Source: a virus. Taken from it: a stretch of 13,069 nt of DNA. Within the stretch, counting starts at the first letter, position 1, and the number at the start of each line of letters is the position of its first letter. The notes beneath the pieces are model-generated. The model did no database searches. It was not told the origin of the DNA and saw only the letters and a program-made list of their open reading frames with translations. The DNA lies in IMG/VR virus record IMGVR_UViG_3300045988_082792, positions 1-13,069 of that record. One strand, given 5' to 3'. Below are positions 153 to 13,069 of the stretch, piece after piece. The translations under genes and the position numbers were made by a program.

Positions 153-181
153 TTGACATATTAGTTCATTTGGACTATAAT
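153..181 (+). promoter_or_regulatory. Inward-facing consensus sigma-A-type promoter in the left ITR
   Basis: TTGACA (153-158), 17-nt spacer, TATAAT (176-181). Both hexamers and the spacing match the consensus exactly. AGGAGG and an ATG follow about 40 nt downstream. Confidence 0.8.
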
Positions 182-1924: not shown

Positions 1925-2614
1925 TTAATAAATTAATAAAAGCAGATCCTGTGCAAAAAGTCCAGTACAATAGTCAATAAAGCTTTGCTTCCTCAGACTG
2001 AGCTCAGATAGCCCCATCTGTTGCGAAGTAGTCACACCAATATTCCCATGAATACGTCCGGAATGCTTATTCTGTCCTGTCTCTCGGCTTGTTTCACCTT
2101 TTCCGTATTCAAACGTGTTTTTGTTTTCCCCAGAGCTTTGTACTTTTGTGCTACCCCCGTACTCTGTCGTTGTTTTTTCGTTCGGACTGTAGCTGGAATC
2201 ATTAAAAGCACTGACTTCATTGGTAGCTGTATCTGACCCAGAGTTAGTAGTAGTGGTTCCCTGTCCTGCCTCTGCCCTATTTACATCCTGCCCGGAACTT
2301 TGACTTGTTCGTGTCATATCCGGGCTATCTGTCCATTCTTCATGACGGTCATAGTTTTCAAGTGGTTCATACTCAGTTAAATCTAATACCTTGTATACTT
2401 TGTCTATACTTCTTTTCCACTTCCTGCTCCATGCAGGGATGGCATTCTCATGCATAAAATCCCAGTCTGGATAAAGTGGCTCACAATCCCCATATGACAG
2501 AAGCAAACTGTCGATAAAATTCTGCCTGTCGGCTGATTCAGGGAACTCCATCCTGTCAAAGAGGGTATCGTTCCATTCATAAAGTCCTGCTATCGTCACT
2601 CTATAAAGTCCCAT
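1925..2614 (-). CDS. Putative lower collar / head-tail adaptor (phi29 gp11 position), 229 aa
   Basis: The ATG is preceded by GGAGGTGA. The gene overlaps the connector gene by 14 nt. It has a Ser/Thr/Gly/Asn-rich central region. The assignment rests mainly on synteny (gp9-gp10-gp11-gp12 order), not on a recognised motif. Confidence 0.45.
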   Translation of the reverse strand: MGLYRVTIAGLYEWNDTLFDRMEFPESADRQNFIDSLLLSYGDCEPLYPDWDFMHENAIPAWSRKWKRSIDKVYKVLDLTEYEPLENYDRHEEWTDSPDMTRTSQSSGQDVNRAEAGQGTTTTNSGSDTATNEVSAFNDSSYSPNEKTTTEYGGSTKVQSSGENKNTFEYGKGETSRETGQNKHSGRIHGNIGVTTSQQMGLSELSLRKQSFIDYCTGLFAQDLLLLIY

Positions 2615-3521
2615 ATGGTTTCACCTCCGCAGTTTCATAGCTTCTGATCTTGATTGATAAGTTCATCTCCGGATAAAGTCTGTTTGTCATATCAACCCCT
2701 GCTTGCATAGTCTCAAGCCAAGTAGTGAGCCGTGTCACGGATTCTGCATCATTTTTGCTTGTTTCAAGTACATTCAGACGTTCTTTTTTATCAGATCCGA
2801 CAGATGGAATACCCACCTCTGTATCGAACTGATCCAGAAGTTTCTCAAATACCTCAATCAGCTCCGGTGCAATGAAGTTTTGCTTCAGATCTTTATTAAA
2901 GCTCTCCCAGGCTTCCTGTTTGACTCCTTGTCTGTCCTCACTTTTTATCGATACGTCAAAAGCCTCAACCGGATTACCAGCTTGTATGCTGTCATAGATT
3001 TTTTTCAACGTCTGTGCTGCTGCCTTGTTTTTTGCAGCTATCAGAAAAGCTAATTTTGAGTTGAACACGTTCATGTCAAAAGCACTTGCTACCAGTGCCA
3101 GCTTATAGCTGTAAAAACCAATGATATCTCCAATCCCACAAAAAGTAGGACTGAGATAGATGACTGAACAGTCTTTTCCAATCTCCATGTCCTCCATGTC
3201 AATCTCTGCGTTGCTTGCATACGTGTGTATAGTAGCTGTGGTTGGTTTGAAATAAATATTGTAGCCTGTCAGCATTGGATACTGTGCAATCAGTCCATAA
3301 AGGTCTGTCTTTGTGATGCAAATATACCCCCCGAAAAGCAAGCAATATTTGAAATAATCAATGTCAATAGTTCCATTATAGGTAATGTCCAAAATAGAAC
3401 AAACACGCTCATAAAGCATCCGATCAAACGTATCTGTGTATAAGCTATCTACTTTTATTCCGGATGGCTGGAAGTAATTTGTGCAAATGTTGATTTTATC
3501 GAAATTAACCGGTGTCCACAT
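2601..3521 (-). CDS. Portal / upper collar connector (phi29 gp10-like), 306 aa
   Basis: Size is close to phi29 gp10 (309 aa). The C-terminal segment GIPSVGSDKKERLNVLETSKNDAE resembles gp10 [25 protein letters not shown] as I recall it. I prefer the ATG at 3521 (AAAGAGGTGA upstream). The track start at 3530 is a GTG inside the SD. Confidence 0.8.
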   Translation of the reverse strand: MWTPVNFDKINICTNYFQPSGIKVDSLYTDTFDRMLYERVCSILDITYNGTIDIDYFKYCLLFGGYICITKTDLYGLIAQYPMLTGYNIYFKPTTATIHTYASNAEIDMEDMEIGKDCSVIYLSPTFCGIGDIIGFYSYKLALVASAFDMNVFNSKLAFLIAAKNKAAAQTLKKIYDSIQAGNPVEAFDVSIKSEDRQGVKQEAWESFNKDLKQNFIAPELIEVFEKLLDQFDTEVGIPSVGSDKKERLNVLETSKNDAESVTRLTTWLETMQAGVDMTNRLYPEMNLSIKIRSYETAEVKPYGTL

Positions 3522-3536
3522 GTTTATCACCTCTTT

Positions 3537-4883
3537 CTATTCAAAGTAAAACCCGTTATTTAGGTAGCTGTTTACCTGTTCTTGATCCCCCTCAAATCCT
3601 GCAATCTGGATAGATGCATTTCTACACTTTACAAATCCAGTCAGTCCAGATATAGAGCGTACAGTGCCATCTACAAACCCCTCACTTGCTCCATCTGGAT
3701 CCATGCTTGTACAGGCATAGGAATTAAACTCTAAAATCTGATTGTTGAGAATATTCGATATGTTCCCAACAGTTCCAAGCATAGAAATCTCTGGTGCGGT
3801 AATACTTCTGCCTGCATCTATTCCTGCTGATACTCCTTGTGCAATGTTTCCCTGTAAGCCAGCACCGACAAGGCTCACAGCTGACGTAGCTAGTTGTGCT
3901 ATGTTTGTGCTGGCATAACCGATTTGCACAGGGACTGATAATTGCAGCTGATAAGACGCAAAAACAACTTTCTTTGATTGCAAAAACACGTTGCATAATC
4001 CGCTTGTTGCATCAAACTGATATAGTGCATTTACGCTTTCATCTATCTTGTATGGATTGAGGGCAACCACTCCAATAAAAGGGAGTTTTATAAAATAGTT
4101 TGAAAAAGATGAAGTATAGTATCTAAAATCTGTAATAGCGTAAAGTGGATTGTCAAAAGCAAAAGAATACGAAAAATTAACCACTGTATCTTCATCAATT
4201 CTTTTTGCTACCACCCCACTGTCCCAAAATCCTAGTTGGATTGCTTCATCATTGCTGCTTTTAAAAGCAGATTCAACAAATGGCACCCATTTCAAATCAA
4301 CTATATATTTAAATGGGTCAAACATTAACTTTGTAATGGCATCTTGTATTACGTCAGTAAAATTTGATTCCGTGTACATAAAGTCAAGCAAGTTATTTAA
4401 TTGATCACCGTTTATATAATATGACGCAACTCCGGTTCTCGAAACTACCCGTATTATATATTGCTGTGAATATGCACTTGTCATTATTTTCTCTTTATGA
4501 GTTACATTCCTTGTGGTTAACACCCAATCATTTGTTGGGATATACATAGAGTCGTTGGCAAGCGTAGTTTGCTTACTTGATCGCTCGATAAAACATGTGT
4601 AGTTGCTGATCTCTGTCCGGTATGTTGCTAACACGTCCTCACTTGCTGAGATCTCAACCATGTCATTATTTAACGATACTGTTGAATTGATAAAATAGTA
4701 ATGGTCAGCCCATTTCAGATAGTTAAATTGCAACGCACTATCCAGTGCTAGCTTTAACTTAAATACTGGATTTTGAAAAGTGGTATTTGATTTTAAAAGA
4801 CAGGGCACAGTAGTGCCCTGTCCCGTTGGTCTTTTGGTACTGTTTTTTCTTTTGGAAAAATGATATAAGATAATTTCTGTCAT
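3537..4883 (-). CDS. Tail knob / distal tail tube protein (phi29 gp9-like), 448 aa
   Basis: A Gly/Ala/Ser-rich loop (VGAGLQGNIAQGVSAGIDAG) is followed by a C-terminal segment (FVKCRNASIQIAGFEGDQEQVNSYLNNGFYF). These parallel gp9 (GGGISAGASAAGG ... [32 protein letters not shown]). The gene sits directly upstream of the connector gene, as in phi29. The start ATG at 4883 overlaps the endolysin stop (ATGA). The track start at 4925 is a TTG inside the endolysin gene. Confidence 0.6.
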   Translation of the reverse strand: MTEIILYHFSKRKNSTKRPTGQGTTVPCLLKSNTTFQNPVFKLKLALDSALQFNYLKWADHYYFINSTVSLNNDMVEISASEDVLATYRTEISNYTCFIERSSKQTTLANDSMYIPTNDWVLTTRNVTHKEKIMTSAYSQQYIIRVVSRTGVASYYINGDQLNNLLDFMYTESNFTDVIQDAITKLMFDPFKYIVDLKWVPFVESAFKSSNDEAIQLGFWDSGVVAKRIDEDTVVNFSYSFAFDNPLYAITDFRYYTSSFSNYFIKLPFIGVVALNPYKIDESVNALYQFDATSGLCNVFLQSKKVVFASYQLQLSVPVQIGYASTNIAQLATSAVSLVGAGLQGNIAQGVSAGIDAGRSITAPEISMLGTVGNISNILNNQILEFNSYACTSMDPDGASEGFVDGTVRSISGLTGFVKCRNASIQIAGFEGDQEQVNSYLNNGFYFE

Positions 4884-5539
4884 GACAAATAGATTTCTCC
4901 CCTTGAAGTAATGGCACAGATCCAACCGGATGGAATCTTAACCCACGTTGCTCCGGCTTCATCCTTTTTGACATCCTTTACCGTGACTGTGGTTCCCTTT
5001 TTCAAGCACCCATCAGAATAAGCGTGTTTCATTCCATCTGCTGTCAGCTGTGCATACTCTTTGATCTGTCCCCAAACGGAAAAACGAACATGTAAGTGGT
5101 CAACTTTGGTTGTATAAGTTTTTCCAATCAAATAGGTCAATGGTTCTTTATATTCTTCATCCCATACCCTGCGGACGCGGACAAGATCATGCCTGCGAGT
5201 TACCGGAGAAATAACAACTCCTTTGCCCGGATTCTCTTTTGTGTTCTTACGACTACCCTGGCTTTCAATCATTTTTCCATAACCTATGTAGATAGCACAG
5301 TGAGTAACAGGAGAACCGAAGAATAAAAAATCACCGGGTTTCTCTAAACCAATCGGAATTTTCACACCCATATTTGCATAAGTTGCCGCATTATAGCGAC
5401 CAACGGATGAACCTGCCATCCTCTGAACCTGGTAAAGCAATCCGGAACAGTCAAGTCCCTGTGCAGGAGTGTTACCACCCCACACATAAGGAGTACCAAT
5501 TAAATTAGTAGCATATGCTACAAGTTCATTTGCTGTCAT
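4880..5539 (-). CDS. Endolysin: NlpC/P60 endopeptidase with C-terminal SH3-like wall-binding domain, 219 aa
   Basis: The NlpC/P60 signature PYVWGGNTPAQGLDCSGLL contains the catalytic Cys, and VTHCAIYIG contains the His. The C-terminal TTVTVKDVKKDEAGATWVKIPSGWICA region looks SH3b-like. The gene is adjacent to the holin. I prefer the ATG at 5539. The track start at 5557 is a TTG inside the holin gene. Confidence 0.85.
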   Translation of the reverse strand: MTANELVAYATNLIGTPYVWGGNTPAQGLDCSGLLYQVQRMAGSSVGRYNAATYANMGVKIPIGLEKPGDFLFFGSPVTHCAIYIGYGKMIESQGSRKNTKENPGKGVVISPVTRRHDLVRVRRVWDEEYKEPLTYLIGKTYTTKVDHLHVRFSVWGQIKEYAQLTADGMKHAYSDGCLKKGTTVTVKDVKKDEAGATWVKIPSGWICAITSRGEIYLS

Positions 5540-6088: not shown

Positions 6089-7285
6089 TTATGCCCCCTC
6101 CCCCAGTACGTAAAGGACTGCGTTGTGTGTGAAATTATTCCAAGCGTTGAACCGGTAGTGATCAAAGATATTGTAATAGCCACCTGCTGCGTTGAATGGG
6201 GTAGCTGCTGAGTACATCCACTGATTGTTCACTCCCATTGCTCTACGATCATATAAAATACCAAGTACATATGGTAGATTTACCGCTGTCGTAGCTGTTT
6301 TGGAAACACCGGTCGCATCAATGATGTTAGGTTTAATGTTGATGGCTGGGCTGTCAAACTCCTGCCAGCCGTTTACAAGTTCTTTGTCGGCAATCTTTAA
6401 CTGTTCATCACTAAAGACTGTCGGAAATACCTGTGTTTCGGAATCAATCCAGAAATCGGTATACATAAGCAGTTTCTGGTTCTCCGGACGTGTAAAGCGC
6501 AGGATATCTTTTCCAGTCAGATTCATGTGATACTTTGTCGTGCGATCCTGCATCTTTTTGGAATCTTTTTTGATTCTTGCAACCACAAAAGCCATGAAAT
6601 CTCTGTGGTACTCCGGGCTTAAAAGCTGCTTTCTTGTCAGTTTTGTTCCATAGGCTGTATTGTACTCTTTTACAAGATCTACTTCATTTGTTCCAAGAGA
6701 GGAAATGCCTGCCATAAAGTTGAGTACCGTCAATCTGCGCTTTGCTTCATTTCTGGATTCAATATCATTATAGTAAGCAGTCATATAGCTACTTACAAAC
6801 ATGAGGAATTCTGCTTCATTTGAAAATGCTAATGCCAGCTGATCACGGAATCGTGTTATATGAGACTGTAAGACTTTGCTACCGTAGAATTTCAACTCCA
6901 CTACTTTCGGGGCATTGATCTTGTACATGTCGACCGACTGACCATCAGCAAGCTGATTTTCATTCAAATCCGTGTTCCAATCCTGTGACGCTTCTGCATC
7001 CAGTGGAAGTGAAATAATCTCACGTGTGATAGCTCCCCAGCGTTCATTATTCTCAATGATTGACCGGAATACACCGGATCTGTATTTTTCCATTTCAAAG
7101 TAGGTTCTTCCACACCACTGACTTAATGCTTTTAAAGTTGGTTCTACGCCTGTCCGCAGCATTGTTTCACCAACAGACACAAAGGAACTTGTGTCCACTG
7201 CTTTGATGTTTTCACGTCCGGTAGCCATCTTGTATAAATCATTGATGATTAAATAGGCATCCTGGACTACTAAACTGTTTGCCAT
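6089..7285 (-). CDS. Major capsid protein (phi29 gp8-like, HK97 fold), 398 aa
   Basis: The segment AEFLMFVSSYMTAYYNDIE resembles gp8 NFESFVSSIINAIYNSAE. The C-terminal RFNAWNNFTHNAVLYVLGEG resembles gp8 VSRFANAVAFVSGD. The gene has a strong SD (AAGGAGGG). The protein appears to end where gp8 continues into its Ig-like domain. Confidence 0.85.
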   Translation of the reverse strand: MANSLVVQDAYLIINDLYKMATGRENIKAVDTSSFVSVGETMLRTGVEPTLKALSQWCGRTYFEMEKYRSGVFRSIIENNERWGAITREIISLPLDAEASQDWNTDLNENQLADGQSVDMYKINAPKVVELKFYGSKVLQSHITRFRDQLALAFSNEAEFLMFVSSYMTAYYNDIESRNEAKRRLTVLNFMAGISSLGTNEVDLVKEYNTAYGTKLTRKQLLSPEYHRDFMAFVVARIKKDSKKMQDRTTKYHMNLTGKDILRFTRPENQKLLMYTDFWIDSETQVFPTVFSDEQLKIADKELVNGWQEFDSPAINIKPNIIDATGVSKTATTAVNLPYVLGILYDRRAMGVNNQWMYSAATPFNAAGGYYNIFDHYRFNAWNNFTHNAVLYVLGEGA

Positions 7286-7298
7286 TTATTTACCCTCC

Positions 7299-7610
7299 TT
7301 AATTCATGAGTTTCATAAGGTCTTCTGCTACGTTGTCAGAAGTGCGCTGTGTTGTTCCGGTTTTTCCGGATGCTGACAGGTTCCCAGCCTGCAGGGTAGC
7401 AGTCAAAGTATTGATTGCTGTCAATAACGCTGTGTTTGTTGCATCCTGCCCCGGAGTTGGAACCTGTGCAGGACTAGTCTGCTGCTGAGTACCCTGTTCC
7501 GGAGTTGGAATCTGTCCAAGTCCGGACATGCTCTGAGCATTCAGAATCCCCATGATCTCATTTTTTGTAAATCCAAGTTTTCCAAGTTCTAAAATCTGAT
7601 CTACTTTCAT
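7299..7610 (-). CDS. Putative scaffolding protein (phi29 gp7 position), 103 aa
   Basis: It lies directly upstream of the capsid gene and is similar in size to gp7 (98 aa). It has a short helical N-terminus, a Pro/Gln/Thr-rich linker and an acidic C-terminal helix. SD is AAAGGAG. The assignment is positional only. Confidence 0.5.
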   Translation of the reverse strand: MKVDQILELGKLGFTKNEIMGILNAQSMSGLGQIPTPEQGTQQQTSPAQVPTPGQDATNTALLTAINTLTATLQAGNLSASGKTGTTQRTSDNVAEDLMKLMN

Positions 7611-7624
7611 TTTTATCTCCTTTT

Positions 7625-7715
7625 CTGCCGGAAGTTAATTAAATAGGTCAACGCTTCCGGGTAATCATCCCACGGCATCCGCTTCCGGCGGTCGATGTAG
7701 CCACGTTGACCTAAT
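7625..7715 (-). other. GC-rich structured intergenic element (candidate ncRNA or regulatory RNA)
   Basis: This is the only sizeable non-coding gap (7611-7727) inside the long operon. TAGGTCAACG (7644-7653) and CGTTGACCTA (7704-7713) form a perfect 10-bp inverted repeat. CGCTTCCGG is directly repeated at 7652-7660 and 7680-7688. GCCGGAAG (7627-7634) is the inverse complement of 7682-7689. By hand count, 7651-7710 is about 60% G+C in an AT-rich genome. Confidence 0.5.
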
Positions 7716-7727
7716 TAAAATATAAGT

Positions 7728-8777
7728 TTATTTGAATAATTTGTCAATATAAAATTTTACTGAAATATTCTGATAACTTATCCTATTTGTCAGACGATAG
7801 CTATCAATCCAACTATAAAAGCATCTGAATTGGTCTTTTCCATGTTGGTTGTCTTCAAATACATCTTTACAAGACCCAGAGATATGATCCGACACATACA
7901 AATGAGCTTTTGATTTGTGCTCATAAATTGCTACTTTTCCAATCACACAAATAAGCTTGTATTGGCGTATATCCTCTGATCTGATAGCTGACACATCATC
8001 ATATGCAAACTCATTTGAAAGTGCCATCTTTGCAAAGTCCGTATCACCCGATAAAGCACGATACAATGCAGTGTCTTTCTTTTTTTCAGAAATCGGGGAA
8101 TCATTGATTAAAACTAAAATGATTCCTCGTTCTTTCAGCAAGGAAAATTCCTGCTTATTCTTTTTCATTCTCTCCAGGATTGGAAGCAAACCAAAAGCTT
8201 GTACAATCGGATTATCCAGTGTATTGGAATTGGAAGCAAGCCACCAGCGGAAGGGCTTCTTTCCTTGCAATTCCCTGTTTGCTGAAATCGTTTCTACAGC
8301 ATTCAAAAAAGCATCATCTTCCCCACTGATTGCTTTTGCAATCTTCTCCGGTATAAACTCATCATAAATACCCTCAGAAAAATCAGATCCGGAGAAACCA
8401 CGGTTGTTATGCATCGAGGTGAGACAAAAAGCCTCACCTCTGTATACTTCCTCTTCCTCAACCTGTTCTACAATCTTGATGCGCCCATACTCACCTCTGG
8501 GTTTTTCAAAATGAAAAAATTTATTCATATCTTTGTTAATGTCCAGCCACGGGTCAAACTCCGGAAGAAACACTTTTGCCAGCTGCTCTTTTGTCCGGCG
8601 CATGTAAATGATTTTTTCATTTTTTGAAAAAACATCATTGATAAAGTGCTGGAAGATCCCGTATGTTTTACCGGTTCGTCTTGCTCCAATGATAAAGATA
8701 AAATTAATTTTATTTTTATCGGCAAGCTGGACAATCCTTGGAACGTCCAACCACCCATTTTTATTATAGATATTCAT
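7728..8777 (-). CDS. DNA encapsidation ATPase (phi29 gp16-like), 349 aa
   Basis: INFIFIIGARRTGKTYGIF...EKIIYMRRTKEQLAKV aligns with gp16 ILNFVIGARGIGKSYAM...EQFIYVRRYKPELAKV, which includes Walker A. A Walker B-like GIYDEF matches gp16 IVFDEF. Size is similar to gp16 (332 aa). Confidence 0.9.
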   Translation of the reverse strand: MNIYNKNGWLDVPRIVQLADKNKINFIFIIGARRTGKTYGIFQHFINDVFSKNEKIIYMRRTKEQLAKVFLPEFDPWLDINKDMNKFFHFEKPRGEYGRIKIVEQVEEEEVYRGEAFCLTSMHNNRGFSGSDFSEGIYDEFIPEKIAKAISGEDDAFLNAVETISANRELQGKKPFRWWLASNSNTLDNPIVQAFGLLPILERMKKNKQEFSLLKERGIILVLINDSPISEKKKDTALYRALSGDTDFAKMALSNEFAYDDVSAIRSEDIRQYKLICVIGKVAIYEHKSKAHLYVSDHISGSCKDVFEDNQHGKDQFRCFYSWIDSYRLTNRISYQNISVKFYIDKLFK

Positions 8778-9077
8778 TTACTGAAATCCACCTCCAGAGG
8801 TTGCAGGCTGCGAAGTCTGATTGCATTCCTTATACTTTTTAATGCAAGCATCCTGCAAAAGATTTGACCACTCTTTATCCAGAGAGTAAACGGAATTGTA
8901 ATAGTTTCCATCTTTTCCTTTTTTGCTTGGGGATGACAAAAAAAGTCCATCATTCCCCTCAACCAGTGTAAGTCCTTTAATTACAAGTGTGTCATCAAGT
9001 TTAAGATCAATAAAAGCTTTTGTTTTTGAGTTACCGTTATATGGTTTGCAAGTGATTTTTACATTTGATTTTAACAT
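8778..9077 (-). CDS. spoVG: SpoVG-family nucleic-acid-binding protein, 99 aa
   Basis: AFIDLKLDDTLVIKGLTLVEGNDGLFLSSPSKKGKDGNYY...LLQDACIKKY aligns with B. subtilis SpoVG [40 protein letters not shown]...KIQDAVLTEY as I recall it. SD is AAAGGAG. The stop abuts the ATPase ATG. Confidence 0.75.
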   Translation of the reverse strand: MLKSNVKITCKPYNGNSKTKAFIDLKLDDTLVIKGLTLVEGNDGLFLSSPSKKGKDGNYYNSVYSLDKEWSNLLQDACIKKYKECNQTSQPATSGGGFQ

Positions 9078-9271: not shown

Positions 9272-9408
9272 CTTTGTACCTCCTTTACATCAATTCTAAT
9301 GATATTTCCTACTTTGTATGCTATGATACTGATCTCATCATCCTCATAGCTAACTTTTCTCAGACTGCTTGTTCGCAGTGTTTCATAAATCTCTGACATG
9401 TCAATCAT
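9268..9408 (-). CDS. Hypothetical small protein, 46 aa
   Basis: It falls below the ORF-track cutoff. The ATG is preceded by GGAGGTGAAGAACC. Translation is MIDMSEIYETLRTSSLRKVSYEDDEISIIAYKVGNIIRIDVKEVQR. It is translationally coupled to the next ORF. Confidence 0.55.
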   Translation of the reverse strand: MIDMSEIYETLRTSSLRKVSYEDDEISIIAYKVGNIIRIDVKEVQR

Positions 9409-9422
9409 GGTTCTTCACCTCC

Positions 9423-9536
9423 TTAATCACCTAACAGCATCCAGACTTGACAGCTTGCAAACATGCAAGCAAAAGTGACGCAAGTCCAAAACAATGTACT
9501 CAAATCTTCTTTGTTTTCTTTCCAGAATTTTTTCAT
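9423..9536 (-). CDS. Small membrane peptide, 37 aa
   Basis: It falls below the ORF-track cutoff. The ATG is preceded by AAGGAGGTG. Translation is MKKFWKENKEDLSTLFWTCVTFACMFASCQVWMLLGD, with one hydrophobic helix. It is the first ORF downstream of the polymerase gene. Confidence 0.55.
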   Translation of the reverse strand: MKKFWKENKEDLSTLFWTCVTFACMFASCQVWMLLGD

Positions 9537-9573
9537 AGGTTACACCTCCTTTATACAGTTTAACTTATTTATG

Positions 9574-9601
9574 TTACAAAACTATTACAAATTTATAACA
9601 A
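9574..9601. repeat. Three TTGTAA-type hexamers at 11-bp phasing
   Basis: On the plus strand, TTACAA is at 9574-9579, TTACAA at 9585-9590 and TAACAA at 9596-9601. They lie in the 67-nt gap between the polymerase stop and the next SD. Confidence 0.6.
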
Positions 9602-9603
9602 TT

Positions 9604-11727
9604 CTATTCATATACTGTATCTTCCATTTCAAATGGCAACGGCAATCCTGTTTCTTTATCATACGGAATCGTATGATCCAATTCATACTCTGTATCAGTC
9701 AACCGGATAGCACAGCCATATTCAATCCTGCATCCGTCAATGGTCAGTTCATTGATTCCATCATGAAAAAGATACTCCGTTTTCATTTTCCACTTGGGGT
9801 CCTGCCAATCATTCGCCCTGCGGTAGTTCCTGCGGAATGTAAGATCATTTTTGAAAATAAATCCTTTTCGAAAATTGGAAATATCATCATCAAGACAATA
9901 TATCCCCTCTTTTGGCACTCCAGCGACCGTCAGATGCAAAGATGCATCTTTTTTTAAGCGGTAACAATACCGCTTACTACCCATCGTTATAAACTCACTG
10001 TATATTCCATCAAACTCAGCGATACCCAGACGGAATGTTTTTCCCTTATACTCAACTACTCCGATGTTTCTTTTTTGTGACATTTCAACGATGGACTGAT
10101 TAAATCCATCCAGTTTATCATGATCCCAGTCTGTGCCTTTAACAGAGTCCGTATCAGAGTATAGCCATTTCCGGCAACAAGACCCCAACCGGAAAAGATA
10201 TGCCTGTGCATAGGCTGTGATAAAAACTCCCCACTGGTAGGGCATAAAGCTGTTTTTATTTTTGTAAAACTTTTCAAGTTCTTTCTCTCTGTCCTCTGGC
10301 TCTTTTGCCTCCCACTCTCCGGATTCCATCAACTCAGTACATAAGATTTGAATGATCCGCTGTACTGTCATGCCGTACATTCCATTAAGTTCCCCTTTTG
10401 AGATCATATAGTTTGCTTCATCCAGACCTTTAAGGGTACATTTTTTAAAAAACAATTCCATCAAATAGCCAATGAACCACTCCGGCAAGTAGTCCTTTGT
10501 CGCTCTCATGACCTTTGACACGTCCGCCCATTCATAATCATAACTTGACAGGATGACTTCTAAATCCGGATCAGTAAATGGATATATGACAAGATCTGCA
10601 TTTACAATCTTTCCATTGTCCAAATTATCATGGAACTGTTCTTTTTTGCTTTTTGCTTCCGGGAAAACACAAACTTTTGCTTTTGAAAAAGCAAGAGGTG
10701 GCATAGGGCAGTCTTTTTTCAACCTCAGATTCTTTAATCTTATATAACCGGAAAAAGCATAATCTTCTTTCAAGTCCATAATGTCTTTTAATGTTATACT
10801 ATTTGTATAACAAAAGTTCGTCATAGGAAATTTGCAATAGCACATCCAAGCAATGTATGAGCTTGCAAAATCGTAGCATTCGACAGGTTCTTTTATCAAT
10901 TGATTAACATAGTATCTGTTTGCATGCGTATATCCCCCATGATAGCAGTCAAGCATTTGGTCATACTGTTCAAGTGTTAATGCCATTTGCTCAAATTGCT
11001 TGCGCCATTTCTTGTCTTTTCTTGATCTTCTGCGGGCATTGGTTCGGATAAAACCAGTATTGGTTAGCGGACAGTTCGCCACGTTAAACCCTCTCTGATC
11101 TATGTATTTGCGCAGTGCCTTGCACAAACTTATCGTATCAGTACAGACATATGCTATTTCTTTTGCCGTACGTGGGCTTGCTGGTGTTCGAAACTTCTTA
11201 TAGTCCCATGTTCCGACAGCTTTCTCAGTGGTTCCCATGTCTTTACAAAGCTTTTCTAACGATCGCTGTGTCAAGATAAGACTGTCACGGAACTCAATCC
11301 CCTGCCCTGTCCATTTCATAAAGATGTACTTATGAGTTTTAGCGGCTAATGATTTGTCCGGATTCCCCCATTTTTGGAAAAAATGATTTCTTAAAAATAC
11401 ATAGTCATACGGAAAGTTATGCACATAAAAGCGTACAAGGTGGCTGTCATCAGCATGTAATGTGGTACAGATCTTGTCTATCGTGTCTATCAGATCTGAT
11501 ACATGATTGCCATAGATGCAGCAATCATTCTCTATCGTGATTGTCCAATCAGTAACAAAACCAATGTTTTTGTTGAGATAGACAAAGGTTTCCGTGTCTA
11601 CGGTTATGATTTTTTCATATACTCCAAGATAATGACCTGCGTTGGATCTCCGGATAAAATTACCATCAAATAAGCTCATATAATCATACTTTTTGAAGTA
11701 TACAACCGGATATCCTGCTACTATCAT
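9604..11727 (-). CDS. Family-B DNA polymerase, protein-primed type (phi29 gp2-like), 707 aa
   Basis: Exonuclease motifs: Exo I VDTETF, Exo II HNFPYDYVFL, Exo III YVCTD. Polymerase motifs: motif A YDFASSYIAWM (Dx2SLYP-like), motif B KGELNGMYG (Kx3NSxYG), motif C LYSDTDS, and KxY as SKRYCY. SD is GGGGAGGT. The gene sits next to an ITR and a candidate terminal protein. Confidence 0.92.
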   Translation of the reverse strand: MIVAGYPVVYFKKYDYMSLFDGNFIRRSNAGHYLGVYEKIITVDTETFVYLNKNIGFVTDWTITIENDCCIYGNHVSDLIDTIDKICTTLHADDSHLVRFYVHNFPYDYVFLRNHFFQKWGNPDKSLAAKTHKYIFMKWTGQGIEFRDSLILTQRSLEKLCKDMGTTEKAVGTWDYKKFRTPASPRTAKEIAYVCTDTISLCKALRKYIDQRGFNVANCPLTNTGFIRTNARRRSRKDKKWRKQFEQMALTLEQYDQMLDCYHGGYTHANRYYVNQLIKEPVECYDFASSYIAWMCYCKFPMTNFCYTNSITLKDIMDLKEDYAFSGYIRLKNLRLKKDCPMPPLAFSKAKVCVFPEAKSKKEQFHDNLDNGKIVNADLVIYPFTDPDLEVILSSYDYEWADVSKVMRATKDYLPEWFIGYLMELFFKKCTLKGLDEANYMISKGELNGMYGMTVQRIIQILCTELMESGEWEAKEPEDREKELEKFYKNKNSFMPYQWGVFITAYAQAYLFRLGSCCRKWLYSDTDSVKGTDWDHDKLDGFNQSIVEMSQKRNIGVVEYKGKTFRLGIAEFDGIYSEFITMGSKRYCYRLKKDASLHLTVAGVPKEGIYCLDDDISNFRKGFIFKNDLTFRRNYRRANDWQDPKWKMKTEYLFHDGINELTIDGCRIEYGCAIRLTDTEYELDHTIPYDKETGLPLPFEMEDTVYE

Positions 11728-12728: not shown

Positions 12729-12760
12729 TTAGTGTTCCTCCTATTCAAATCCTTTTTCTT

Positions 12761-12841
12761 TCATTTCGTGTTCAAGATTTTTAATTCTTTCCAAAGTTCT
12801 TTTTCATGTGCTAATTCATATAATCTTGCTTCACTCATCAT
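12761..12841 (-). CDS. ITR-encoded micro-ORF, 26 aa (right copy, identical)
   Basis: Exact mirror of 229-309, with the same SD and the same peptide. It is the first cistron downstream of the right ITR promoter. Confidence 0.45.
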   Translation of the reverse strand: MMSEARLYELAHEKELWKELKILNTK

Positions 12842-12888
12842 TTCACCCTCCTGCCTAGTTGGCTGTGCTGTATTGATTTGTTGAGTTT

Positions 12889-12917
12889 ATTATAGTCCAA
12901 ATGAACTAATATGTCAA
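12889..12917 (-). promoter_or_regulatory. Inward-facing consensus sigma-A-type promoter in the right ITR
   Basis: Mirror copy: TTGACA is the reverse complement of 12912-12917 and TATAAT of 12889-12894. It sits in position to drive the long minus-strand gene array. Confidence 0.8.
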
Positions 12918-13069
12918 CAGGATAAGTGACAGACTTTGTGTGATATTGTCAGACAATTTAATGTTATAGTTGCCTAGCAAGAACCATGCCAGTTTTGCAA
13001 TTATGAACAAAATATGAACAGATTGGGGAAATGTTCACAATTTGTTCACAGGTTTACCTTGCCAAGTTT

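Follow-up and report, generated by a model that had tools for sequence, protein, structure and literature searches.

The prohead RNA (pRNA) of phage phi29 is among the best-studied RNA machines and has become a workhorse of RNA nanotechnology. Its paired ends build the A helix, a three-way junction organizes the molecule, and the CE and D loops pair with each other over 3–4 nt in a covarying manner (PMC5066667, PMC12670572); the A helix of phi29 is long and carries a CCA bulge (C18C19A20) that is needed for binding of the ATPase (PMC5066667). No pRNA is known outside Bacillus phages, and a 2024 review calls it unique to them (PMC11476376). For attaching the motor to the portal in other phages with a short gp16-type ATPase, the element described here is a testable candidate. 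The window analysed is the whole of record IMGVR_UViG_3300045988_082792 (13,069 bp; all coordinates are window positions), which by its gene content is a phi29-like podophage; since pRNA is known from Bacillus phages only, the role of a packaging RNA is unfilled in its clade. Judged from covariation among relatives, positions 7644–7713 of the minus strand almost certainly encode a member of a new family of structured RNAs with a three-way junction, located at the head of the late operon. This family of ~70-nt RNAs is previously undescribed and suits both Rfam and structural work; no earlier description of the element, or of a pRNA in Guelinviridae, turned up in the literature.

Fold and covariation of the late-leader RNA

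The element lies in the sole non-coding stretch of more than 100 nt within the gene block, between the ATPase gene and the first late gene (the apparent gap at 9272–9603 is occupied by open reading frames of 37–59 aa). Its core, 7644–7713 (70 nt), has a GC content of 58.6%, whereas the genome averages 39%; no other 70-nt segment is richer (top 0.08%). The initial annotation of this DNA had singled out the gap as the only long non-coding stretch and its core as GC-rich; it was right on both counts, and the sequence features it listed, including a 10-bp stem enclosing 50 nt, are all found where it placed them. The transcript of interest is that of the minus strand, because all long genes are on this strand. 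Its parts, with the flanking leader segments, are, from 5' to 3':

7703–7713, minus strand: 5' arm of helix P1, UAGGUCAACGU; 11 pairs, 10 of them with changes on both sides
7700–7702, minus strand: 5' arm of helix P1b, GGC; stacked on P1 with zero junction nucleotides
7692–7699, minus strand: internal loop of 8 nt, UACAUCGA; A7696-U7695-C7694 is the 5' partner of the pseudoknot
7679–7691, minus strand: hairpin P2, CCGC-loop CGGAA-GCGG; 7691–7688 pair with 7682–7679
7674–7676, minus strand: 3' arm of P1b, GCC; pairs with 7702–7700
7659–7671, minus strand: hairpin P3, GGG-loop AUGAUUA-CCC; 7671–7669 pair with 7661–7659
7655–7658, minus strand: junction strand J3/1, GGAA; its AA is invariant in close and mid-distance relatives
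7644–7654, minus strand: 3' arm of P1, GCGUUGACCUA; pairs with 7713–7703
7636–7643, minus strand: U-rich tail, UUUAAUUA, immediately 3' of P1; similar to a pause site or a weak terminator
7627–7634, minus strand: leader segment CUUCCGGC, complement of the P2 5' side and loop (7689–7682)

The folding energy of the region is only moderately unusual: the full gap has a z value of -2.0, the core reaches -2.75 and the opposite strand -2.73. As it is modest and equal on both strands, the case for a structured RNA rests on the comparison with relatives, by which the element is shown to be far beyond chance. In an alignment of 33 sequences, in which the five-helix structure was scored against slid controls, 99.1% of positions were paired and 13 pairs had changed on both sides, while the controls reached 30–46%; RNAalifold, unaided, recovered the same helices. 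A larger set of 73 model-aligned relatives, corresponding to 50 distinct sequences, gave 95.7% of cells paired and changes on both sides at 18 of the 25 pairs, and sliding the structure by 1–3 columns reduced pairing to 27–48%. Over the three alignments made, pairing ranged from 95.7 to 99.6%, with changes on both sides at 13–18 pairs in alignments A1 and A4 and at 4 pairs in the closely related sequences of A5. The arms of P1 differ wholly between groups and yet remain complementary, as in AGGUCAACG/CGUUGACCU, AGGUCAGAG/CUCUGACCU, UAAGGGAAAAC/GUUUUCCCUUA and AAGGAAGCG/CGCUUCCUU. The earlier suggestion of a functional element acting at the RNA level on the minus-strand transcript is thus borne out by the homologous intergenic regions of relatives, whose strong covariation supports the stems.

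The individual helices contribute to this picture in different ways. The perfect 10-bp stem (7713–7704 with 7653–7644, enclosing 50 nt) is extended to the 11 bp of P1 by the wobble pair U7703–G7654, which is UG in 30 of the 50 sequences, and this retention as UG fits an RNA encoded on the minus strand. P1b is 100% paired and covaries at each of its three pairs (GC/AU, GC/CG and CG/GC/AU). P2, which had been noted initially as a CCGC/GCGG hairpin, proves to be a conserved helix, again 100% paired, in which two pairs change from CG to UA; its loop, with the consensus C-N-G-A-A, is the most conserved sequence feature of the family and reads CGGAA, CAGAA or CCGAA in ~10 of 12 lineages. P3 shows a GC to AU change at one pair and further covariation in lineage L087. 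The pseudoknot, finally, joins the internal loop to the P3 loop through A7696-U7695-C7694 and G7666-A7665-U7664; it is 100% paired in the alignment (columns 19–21 with 53–55) and covaries at two positions, switching from AU to GC in 10 sequences and from UA to CG in 12.

A pseudoknot had indeed been proposed for the gap, with CUUCCGGC as one of its partners; a pseudoknot is present and covaries, but its partners are the internal loop and the P3 loop. The segment CUUCCGGC (7634–7627) is complementary to GCCGGAAG (7689–7682), as the initial annotation had it (p = 0.004 against shuffled leaders), though this pairing would disrupt P2 and has counterparts in some lineages only. Leader complements of their own, 8–9 nt long, occur in L056 (p = 0.016), L067 (p = 0.0065) and L082 (p = 0.0005), and 7–8 other lineages have none. 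The leader complementarity is real, but as an accessory trait of certain lineages; it may serve as a switch or as an antisense contact resembling that of c4 RNA. Both copies of the repeat CCGGAAGCG exist, at 7688–7680 and 7660–7652, but the second varies freely in relatives, where CCCGUAAG, CCCGCAAG or CCCAGAAG takes its place; the direct repeat was consequently rejected as a functional unit.

A search with the known RNA families of Rfam 15 at E ≤ 10, covering the window, the 171-nt region around the element and 8 related genomes, gave no match on the core, and a permissive Rfam scan returned chance matches on the region of the ribosome-binding site only. ARAGORN found no tRNA or tmRNA in the window. 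The absence of any other pRNA candidate, remarked upon initially, extends to the complete genome including the terminal repeats, in which no other RNA candidate was found.

Late promoter, RNA ends and distribution

The element is preceded at close distance by a sigma-70-type promoter and followed by the signals for translation of the first late gene:

7742–7747, minus strand: -35 box TTGACA, inside the last ATPase codons
7719–7724, minus strand: -10 box TATATT, directly after the ATPase stop codon (7730–7728)
7608–7620, minus strand: Shine-Dalgarno sequence GGAG (7620–7617) and ATG (7610–7608) of the first late gene

With 11 of 12 consensus positions, this late promoter (TTGACA-17-TATATT, 7747–7719) is the third-best match in the genome, outscored only by two perfect promoters in the terminal repeats. 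A comparable match occurs at the same position in every lineage examined, with a weak -35 box in L085. P1 starts 3–6 nt after the -10 box in 12 of 12 lineages, which would put the 5' terminus of the RNA at the base of P1; from the standard spacing between -10 box and +1, the transcription start of the window phage is predicted at ~A7712, the second base of the 10-bp stem. As there is no room for another promoter before the first late gene, all late transcription passes through the element, which is present in one copy per genome and in the transcribed orientation. In L003, a close relative, 27 bp of the promoter region are duplicated in tandem (TATATTGACAAATTATTCAAATAATCT, two copies, at ~5040–5095), so that two -35 boxes and two ATPase stop codons stand ahead of the element.

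At the other end of the RNA, UUU follows directly 3' of P1 in 59 of the 73 aligned close and mid-distance relatives, and most of the distant lineages have a run of at least 3 U within a few nucleotides of P1. By terminator standards these U-tails are weak, being short and interrupted (UAUUUAAUU, GUUUCUGA, UAUUACUG), and a terminator scan does not call P1 plus tail, in which UAUUUAAUU is interrupted and the 'loop' is a folded domain of 50 nt. A special arrangement is found in lineage L087 (80 genomes of ~14-kb gut phages), where a tRNA-Gln(UUG) lies 4–6 nt after P1 and before the scaffold gene (8489–8564, minus strand, in L087; also in L123–L202); its score exceeds the Rfam threshold, and its acceptor stem has changed in a compensatory manner. 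Because this tRNA adjoins the element, RNase P should detach the latter as a discrete RNA. A 5' protector, a translational operator and a tethered antiterminator would all require the element to stay on the mRNA, and this arrangement argues against them; it agrees with a small RNA that is set free, or with a decision taken while transcription is under way. A further tRNA, tRNA-Pro(CGG), lies inside the late region of L083 (MT836263, 3917–3993, minus strand).

Taken from the positions of promoter, P1 and U-tail, there is a somewhat better than even chance that the RNA is made as a discrete molecule of ~70–75 nt with paired ends, the rest of transcription reading through to the late mRNA. Its 5' end would arise by initiation at the first base of P1, and its 3' end by termination or pausing at the U-rich stretch or, in one lineage, by RNase P at the tRNA; the remaining transcripts would continue through the element to become late mRNA.

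The distribution of the element was traced through the ATPase, for which IMG/VR holds 337 relatives, 80 of them fetched. The element is located downstream of the ATPase gene in all members of the groups with 93–99% and 66–68% ATPase identity, and the same architecture recurs in ~12 lineages of gut phi29-like phages with ATPase identity down to 26%; where the ATPases are 26–35% identical, the layout and place are the same and each lineage has its own promoter match. The family is thus present in hundreds of phi29-like phage genomes from the human gut, a large clade of podophages. It includes the cultured Amedibacillus phage AD70P3 (Guelinviridae; OP172639), whose element is located at ~6300–6366 on the minus strand, and five unannotated faecal contigs carry distant versions. 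A covariance model, R1, finds close relatives only with default filters and, with filters off, reaches L082, L083 and a group with 41% ATPase identity to the window, but not L084–L087, which were identified by position, promoter and folding. In most of the distant lineages, folding of the single sequence gives the same helices, and each has a complementary 3–8-mer of different sequence at the same place, with the loop–loop pairs AACC/GGUU, AGCC/GGCU, GCUA/UAGC, GUCG/CGAC, AUCC/GGAU, UCC/GGA and GGC/GCC. For the L087 lineage, 80 further genomes were fetched, in which 99.6% of the structure is paired and P1, P2 and P3 all show compensatory changes. In L086 the P3 hairpin is replaced by a single strand that pairs over 8 bp with the internal loop, giving a plain H-type pseudoknot. 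Directly after the element of this G+C-rich lineage (~6100–6180, plus strand) there is a second possible structured domain, which is closed by GUUUCUGA/UCAGAAAC and contains a UUCCGG complementary to the P2 loop.

Beyond phages, two pattern scans of 185,579 prokaryotic species representatives gave one match, a 12.6-kb phage contig in a metagenome-assembled genome (MAG); the element is phage-only, and the genome scans yield no host clue. In public assemblies, which were inspected for transcript ends, every contig with the scaffold gene is a near-full-length DNA genome and gives no information on such ends. The 12.6-kb contig (L110, CABPYD010000046.1) has both the element and a SpoVG gene, and its MAG is labelled uncultured Odoribacter. 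This binning is probably spurious, since TTGACA/TATAAT promoters and GGAGG ribosome-binding sites indicate a Firmicute host.

The initial annotation had attached meaning to the position of the element downstream of the ATPase gene, which turns out to be incidental. In MT835998 the ATPase gene is on the other strand and 8 kb away, and the element (1047–1125) follows a TTGACA-17-TACTAT promoter and precedes a small membrane protein gene, the scaffold gene and the capsid gene. In the group with 41% ATPase identity, the ATPase gene ends at a convergent terminator, and the element (91–164 in L088; 60 bits, E = 1e-14) is located close to the left end of the genome, immediately ahead of the scaffold and capsid genes. 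The element therefore belongs to the head of the late operon, with scaffold and capsid, and not to the ATPase; a functional link to the ATPase gene was rejected, as the element stays with the late promoter wherever the two separate.

The genomic setting of the window phage is that of a complete linear phage genome, since perfect inverted terminal repeats of 334 bp (1–334 and 12736–13069) are found at both ends; those of phi29 measure 6 bp. Each repeat contains a perfect TTGACA-17-TATAAT promoter (153–181, plus strand; 12917–12889, minus strand) and a 26-aa open reading frame. The genes that define the phage as phi29-like are:

7728–8777, minus strand: Gp16-type packaging ATPase (Pfam Podovirus_Gp16, 6e-18; PHROGs agree)
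6089–7285, minus strand: phi29-type major capsid protein (Pfam Phi29_MCP, 3e-15; PHROGs agree)
2601–3530, minus strand: connector, gp10-type (Pfam Phage_connector, 5e-13; PHROGs agree)
9604–11727, minus strand: protein-primed family B polymerase (Pfam DNA_pol_B_2; PHROGs agree)

The first late gene product is a scaffold-like protein of 103 aa, and the lysis genes share the late operon with scaffold, capsid and tail genes. The phage is common across human gut metagenomes, and its nearest entry in GenBank is MT836115, a contig from human faeces that bears no annotation (84% nucleotide identity). Just upstream of the ATPase gene, positions 8778–9077 of the minus strand encode a nucleic-acid-binding protein of the SpoVG family (99 aa; Pfam 9e-16). 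Homologues occur in the ATPase groups with 93–99% and 66–68% identity, in L067 and in Clostridium phage phiCPV4, and are absent from the group with 41% ATPase identity, from L082–L085 and from L087. This protein was rejected as an obligate partner, because most element-bearing lineages lack it.

Possible functions of the element

The most likely function, put forward tentatively and by analogy, would be that of a minimal counterpart of the phi29 prohead RNA, a small trans-acting RNA with paired ends. P1 would then be the equivalent of the A helix and P3 that of the D hairpin, while P1b, internal loop and P2 would match the C helix, CE loop and E hairpin, respectively. Pairing of the internal loop of one molecule with the P3 loop of the next would build a ring at the portal vertex, onto which the gp16-type ATPase would dock, and transcription from the late promoter would have the RNA co-expressed with the prohead proteins. 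The further step, that this ~70-nt RNA made from the late promoter is the missing packaging RNA of phi29-like phages outside Bacillus, is a possibility to be held with yet more reserve. As to the initial idea of a pRNA in this gap, the true structure has the helix order of phi29 pRNA and a covarying pairing of a bulge loop with a hairpin loop, and is closer to pRNA in topology than that annotation could see; it falls short of the 117-nt size, has no long bulged A helix and is not matched by the Rfam model. The idea is thereby partly supported, being neither proven nor excluded.

A number of observations weigh against a packaging role. The element measures ~70 nt, compared with 117 nt for domain I of phi29 pRNA (174 nt with domain II), and its helices are far shorter. 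P1 consists of 6–12 continuous pairs and has a bulge in no lineage. There is no domain II, a U-stretch and the ribosome-binding site following within 33 nt of P1. The Rfam Phage_pRNA model gave no match at E ≤ 10 in the whole window or in the 171 nt around the element; the same model fails to detect an RNA cassette in Enterococcus phage Athos (Salasmaviridae) as well. A basic cluster at the N-terminus of the phi29 gp10 connector binds pRNA, and no such cluster was found on the connector N-termini of this clade. In Astrithrvirus phages, which have Gram-negative hosts and the same type of ATPase, no comparable RNA was found in any gap, and an RNA adaptor is for this reason not obligatory for gp16-type motors. 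P1b (3–6 bp) and P3 (3–5 bp) are of similar length across lineages, so that an ordinary intramolecular pseudoknot is feasible, and the plain H-type version in L086 does without the P3 hairpin. Finally, the obligatory passage of late transcription through the element suits a cis-acting gate equally well. Along these lines it may be recorded that the 11.5-kb genomes of Salmonella phage astrithr (L106) and Acinetobacter phage Phanie (L107), whose capsid proteins are related to those of this clade, are tightly packed and have no gap after the terminase.

Such a gate on the late operon, an attenuator or the target of an antiterminator acting during transcription, is the main rival, possible though doubtful; the initial annotation had already named a partial terminator or attenuator among its alternatives. 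In this scheme the near-consensus late promoter would fire from the start of infection, and P1 with its U-stretch would stop or pause most polymerases (in genomes of the window type also those reading through from the early genes), until a phage or host factor that reads the folded core, with its C-N-G-A-A loop and pseudoknot, sets the level of late-gene transcription. The constant position of the element between late promoter and first late gene in any genome arrangement agrees with this, as do the absence of space into which a second promoter could fit, the U-rich sequence that most lineages have behind P1 and the presence of the lysis genes in the same operon; with early and late promoters both close to the sigma-70-type consensus, control after initiation is plausible. 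The scheme has difficulty, however, with U-stretches that are short and interrupted and with a structured 'loop' of 50 nt that is atypical for an intrinsic terminator and is passed over by the terminator scan. Attenuators and riboswitches do not need P1 at +1, where it is found in 12 of 12 lineages, and since the transcript starts at P1 there is no conserved antiterminator pairing ahead of the decision point; segments that could compete occur only past the U-stretch, and in 4 lineages only. A conserved candidate antiterminator was not found, the SpoVG-like protein being missing from most lineages. Processive antitermination in the manner of HK022 put or EAR RNA, by which polymerase would become terminator-resistant across the 7-kb late operon, is very improbable. 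The element is a structured RNA located in cis close to the promoter, and a U-rich site of pause-like character comes right after it, but no convincing terminators are predicted inside the late operon, Rfam reveals no similarity to EAR, and the tRNA of L087 would lead to cutting of the tether between RNA and polymerase.

Other proposals give the element a role in the fate of the late mRNA or at the DNA level. An antisense-type regulator of the late mRNA leader resembling c4, in which a P2 seed would pair upstream of the ribosome-binding site, either in cis or after release, and tune translation or the fate of the mRNA, appears improbable. It draws on the 8–9-nt leader complements to P2 or adjoining core in 4 independent lineages (p 0.0005–0.016) and on the fact that in the window the same CUUCC can instead pair with the GGAG of the ribosome-binding site. 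Such complements are missing from 7–8 lineages that keep the full fold, so that this cannot be the core function, and both the targeted part of the element and the first late gene differ by lineage. More improbable still is that the RNA serves as a 5'-terminal protective structure alone, shielding the late mRNA of a Firmicute host from decay that depends on the 5' end. A stem at the 5' terminus protects against attack of the RNase J type in Gram-positive mRNA decay, and P1 is at the predicted +1 in every lineage; a simple hairpin would do for this purpose, leaving junction, pseudoknot and loop sequence unexplained, and processing at the L087 tRNA, which stands between element and mRNA, would remove the protector. 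The initial annotation had also considered the TTCCGG repeats as binding sites for a late-gene regulator, and three CCGGAA/TTCCGG copies ~27–28 bp apart are found in the gap, with an inverted repeat on either side of the start site. Relatives do not keep the second copy, however, CCGGAA occurs 19 times in the genome, and the P1 arms change fully while complementarity is kept, with G-U pairs that would be meaningless in duplex DNA. A DNA-level operator was rejected on this covariation and these G-U pairs, and hardly any weight is left to it; the remaining probability belongs to something not yet imagined.

If the RNA does act in packaging as a counterpart of pRNA, dependence of packaging on RNA would go back to the ancestor of gp16-type motors and be widespread among them, and the smallest RNA that such a motor needs would be known. 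If it is a transcription gate, it would represent a new RNA-based mode of late-gene timing in minimal phages that use unmodified host polymerase and near-consensus promoters. Either way, the result is a family of structured RNAs that is new, contains a pseudoknot and covaries abundantly, and the question is directly testable because a cultured host–phage pair exists in Amedibacillus phage AD70P3.

Comparison with described RNAs

The late region of phage lambda (constitutive PR', terminator tR', 6S transcript, Q antitermination) has in common with the present locus a strong late promoter followed with hardly any gap by a stem and a U-stretch, an order by which a single promoter would give a short RNA along with regulated read-through. 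The short RNA of lambda is without a conserved higher-order fold, and control is exerted through a DNA site and a polymerase-bound protein; the element, on the other hand, is a conserved pseudoknotted RNA, and a Q-like protein was not found. HK022 put and EAR are, like the element, promoter-proximal structured RNAs of ~70–120 nt located in cis at the head of a long operon, and EAR also has a pseudoknot. HK022 put consists of two stem-loops without a junction; it differs in this from the three-way junction of the element. EAR differs in that the element has no Rfam match to it.

The c4 RNA of phages P1 and P7 is likewise a small structured RNA, cut from the transcript that bears its target with participation of RNase P in the release, and its loops are complementary to a sequence that shortly precedes a ribosome-binding site. 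It differs from the element in its fold; the complementarity is limited to 4 of ~12 lineages, and there is no match to the Rfam C4 model. Unannotated RNAs of two cultured relatives, Clostridium phage phiCPV4 and Enterococcus phage Athos, resemble the element in being structured, in coming after a promoter and in immediately preceding the scaffold and capsid genes; they are ~110–150 nt long, have other helix layouts and are known from single-sequence folding alone. In phiCPV4 (L122, NC_018083), a 213-nt gap (16131–16343, minus strand) extends from a SpoVG gene and terminator to the scaffold and capsid genes, with the SpoVG gene directly upstream of the RNA gap, and folds as a multi-helix RNA of ~110 nt with GAACC/GGUUC complementarity; the phiCPV4 genome paper reports no pRNA. 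In Athos (L109, LR990834), an unannotated cassette at ~4590–4775 of the plus strand, upstream of the scaffold gene's own promoter, comprises an extended -10 promoter, an RNA of ~150 nt whose ends form a long bulged helix, and a strong terminator. By its predicted fold this cassette looks like a pRNA-type gene, with no match to the Rfam pRNA model; the relatives compared are near-identical.

The phi29 pRNA itself is encoded by a separate early gene near the genome end, whereas the element is part of the leader of the late operon, and the two have no similarity in sequence or in their covariance models. Both come from phi29-type phages with a gp16 ATPase and a gp10-type connector. In both, paired 5' and 3' ends make a basal helix that leads to a three-way junction, one arm of which ends in a hairpin and has, beneath it, a bulge loop on the 5' strand; the loop of another short hairpin is complementary to this bulge loop over 3–4 nt and covaries with it. 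Transcription of pRNA starts at the first base of the basal helix, and the same is predicted for the element.

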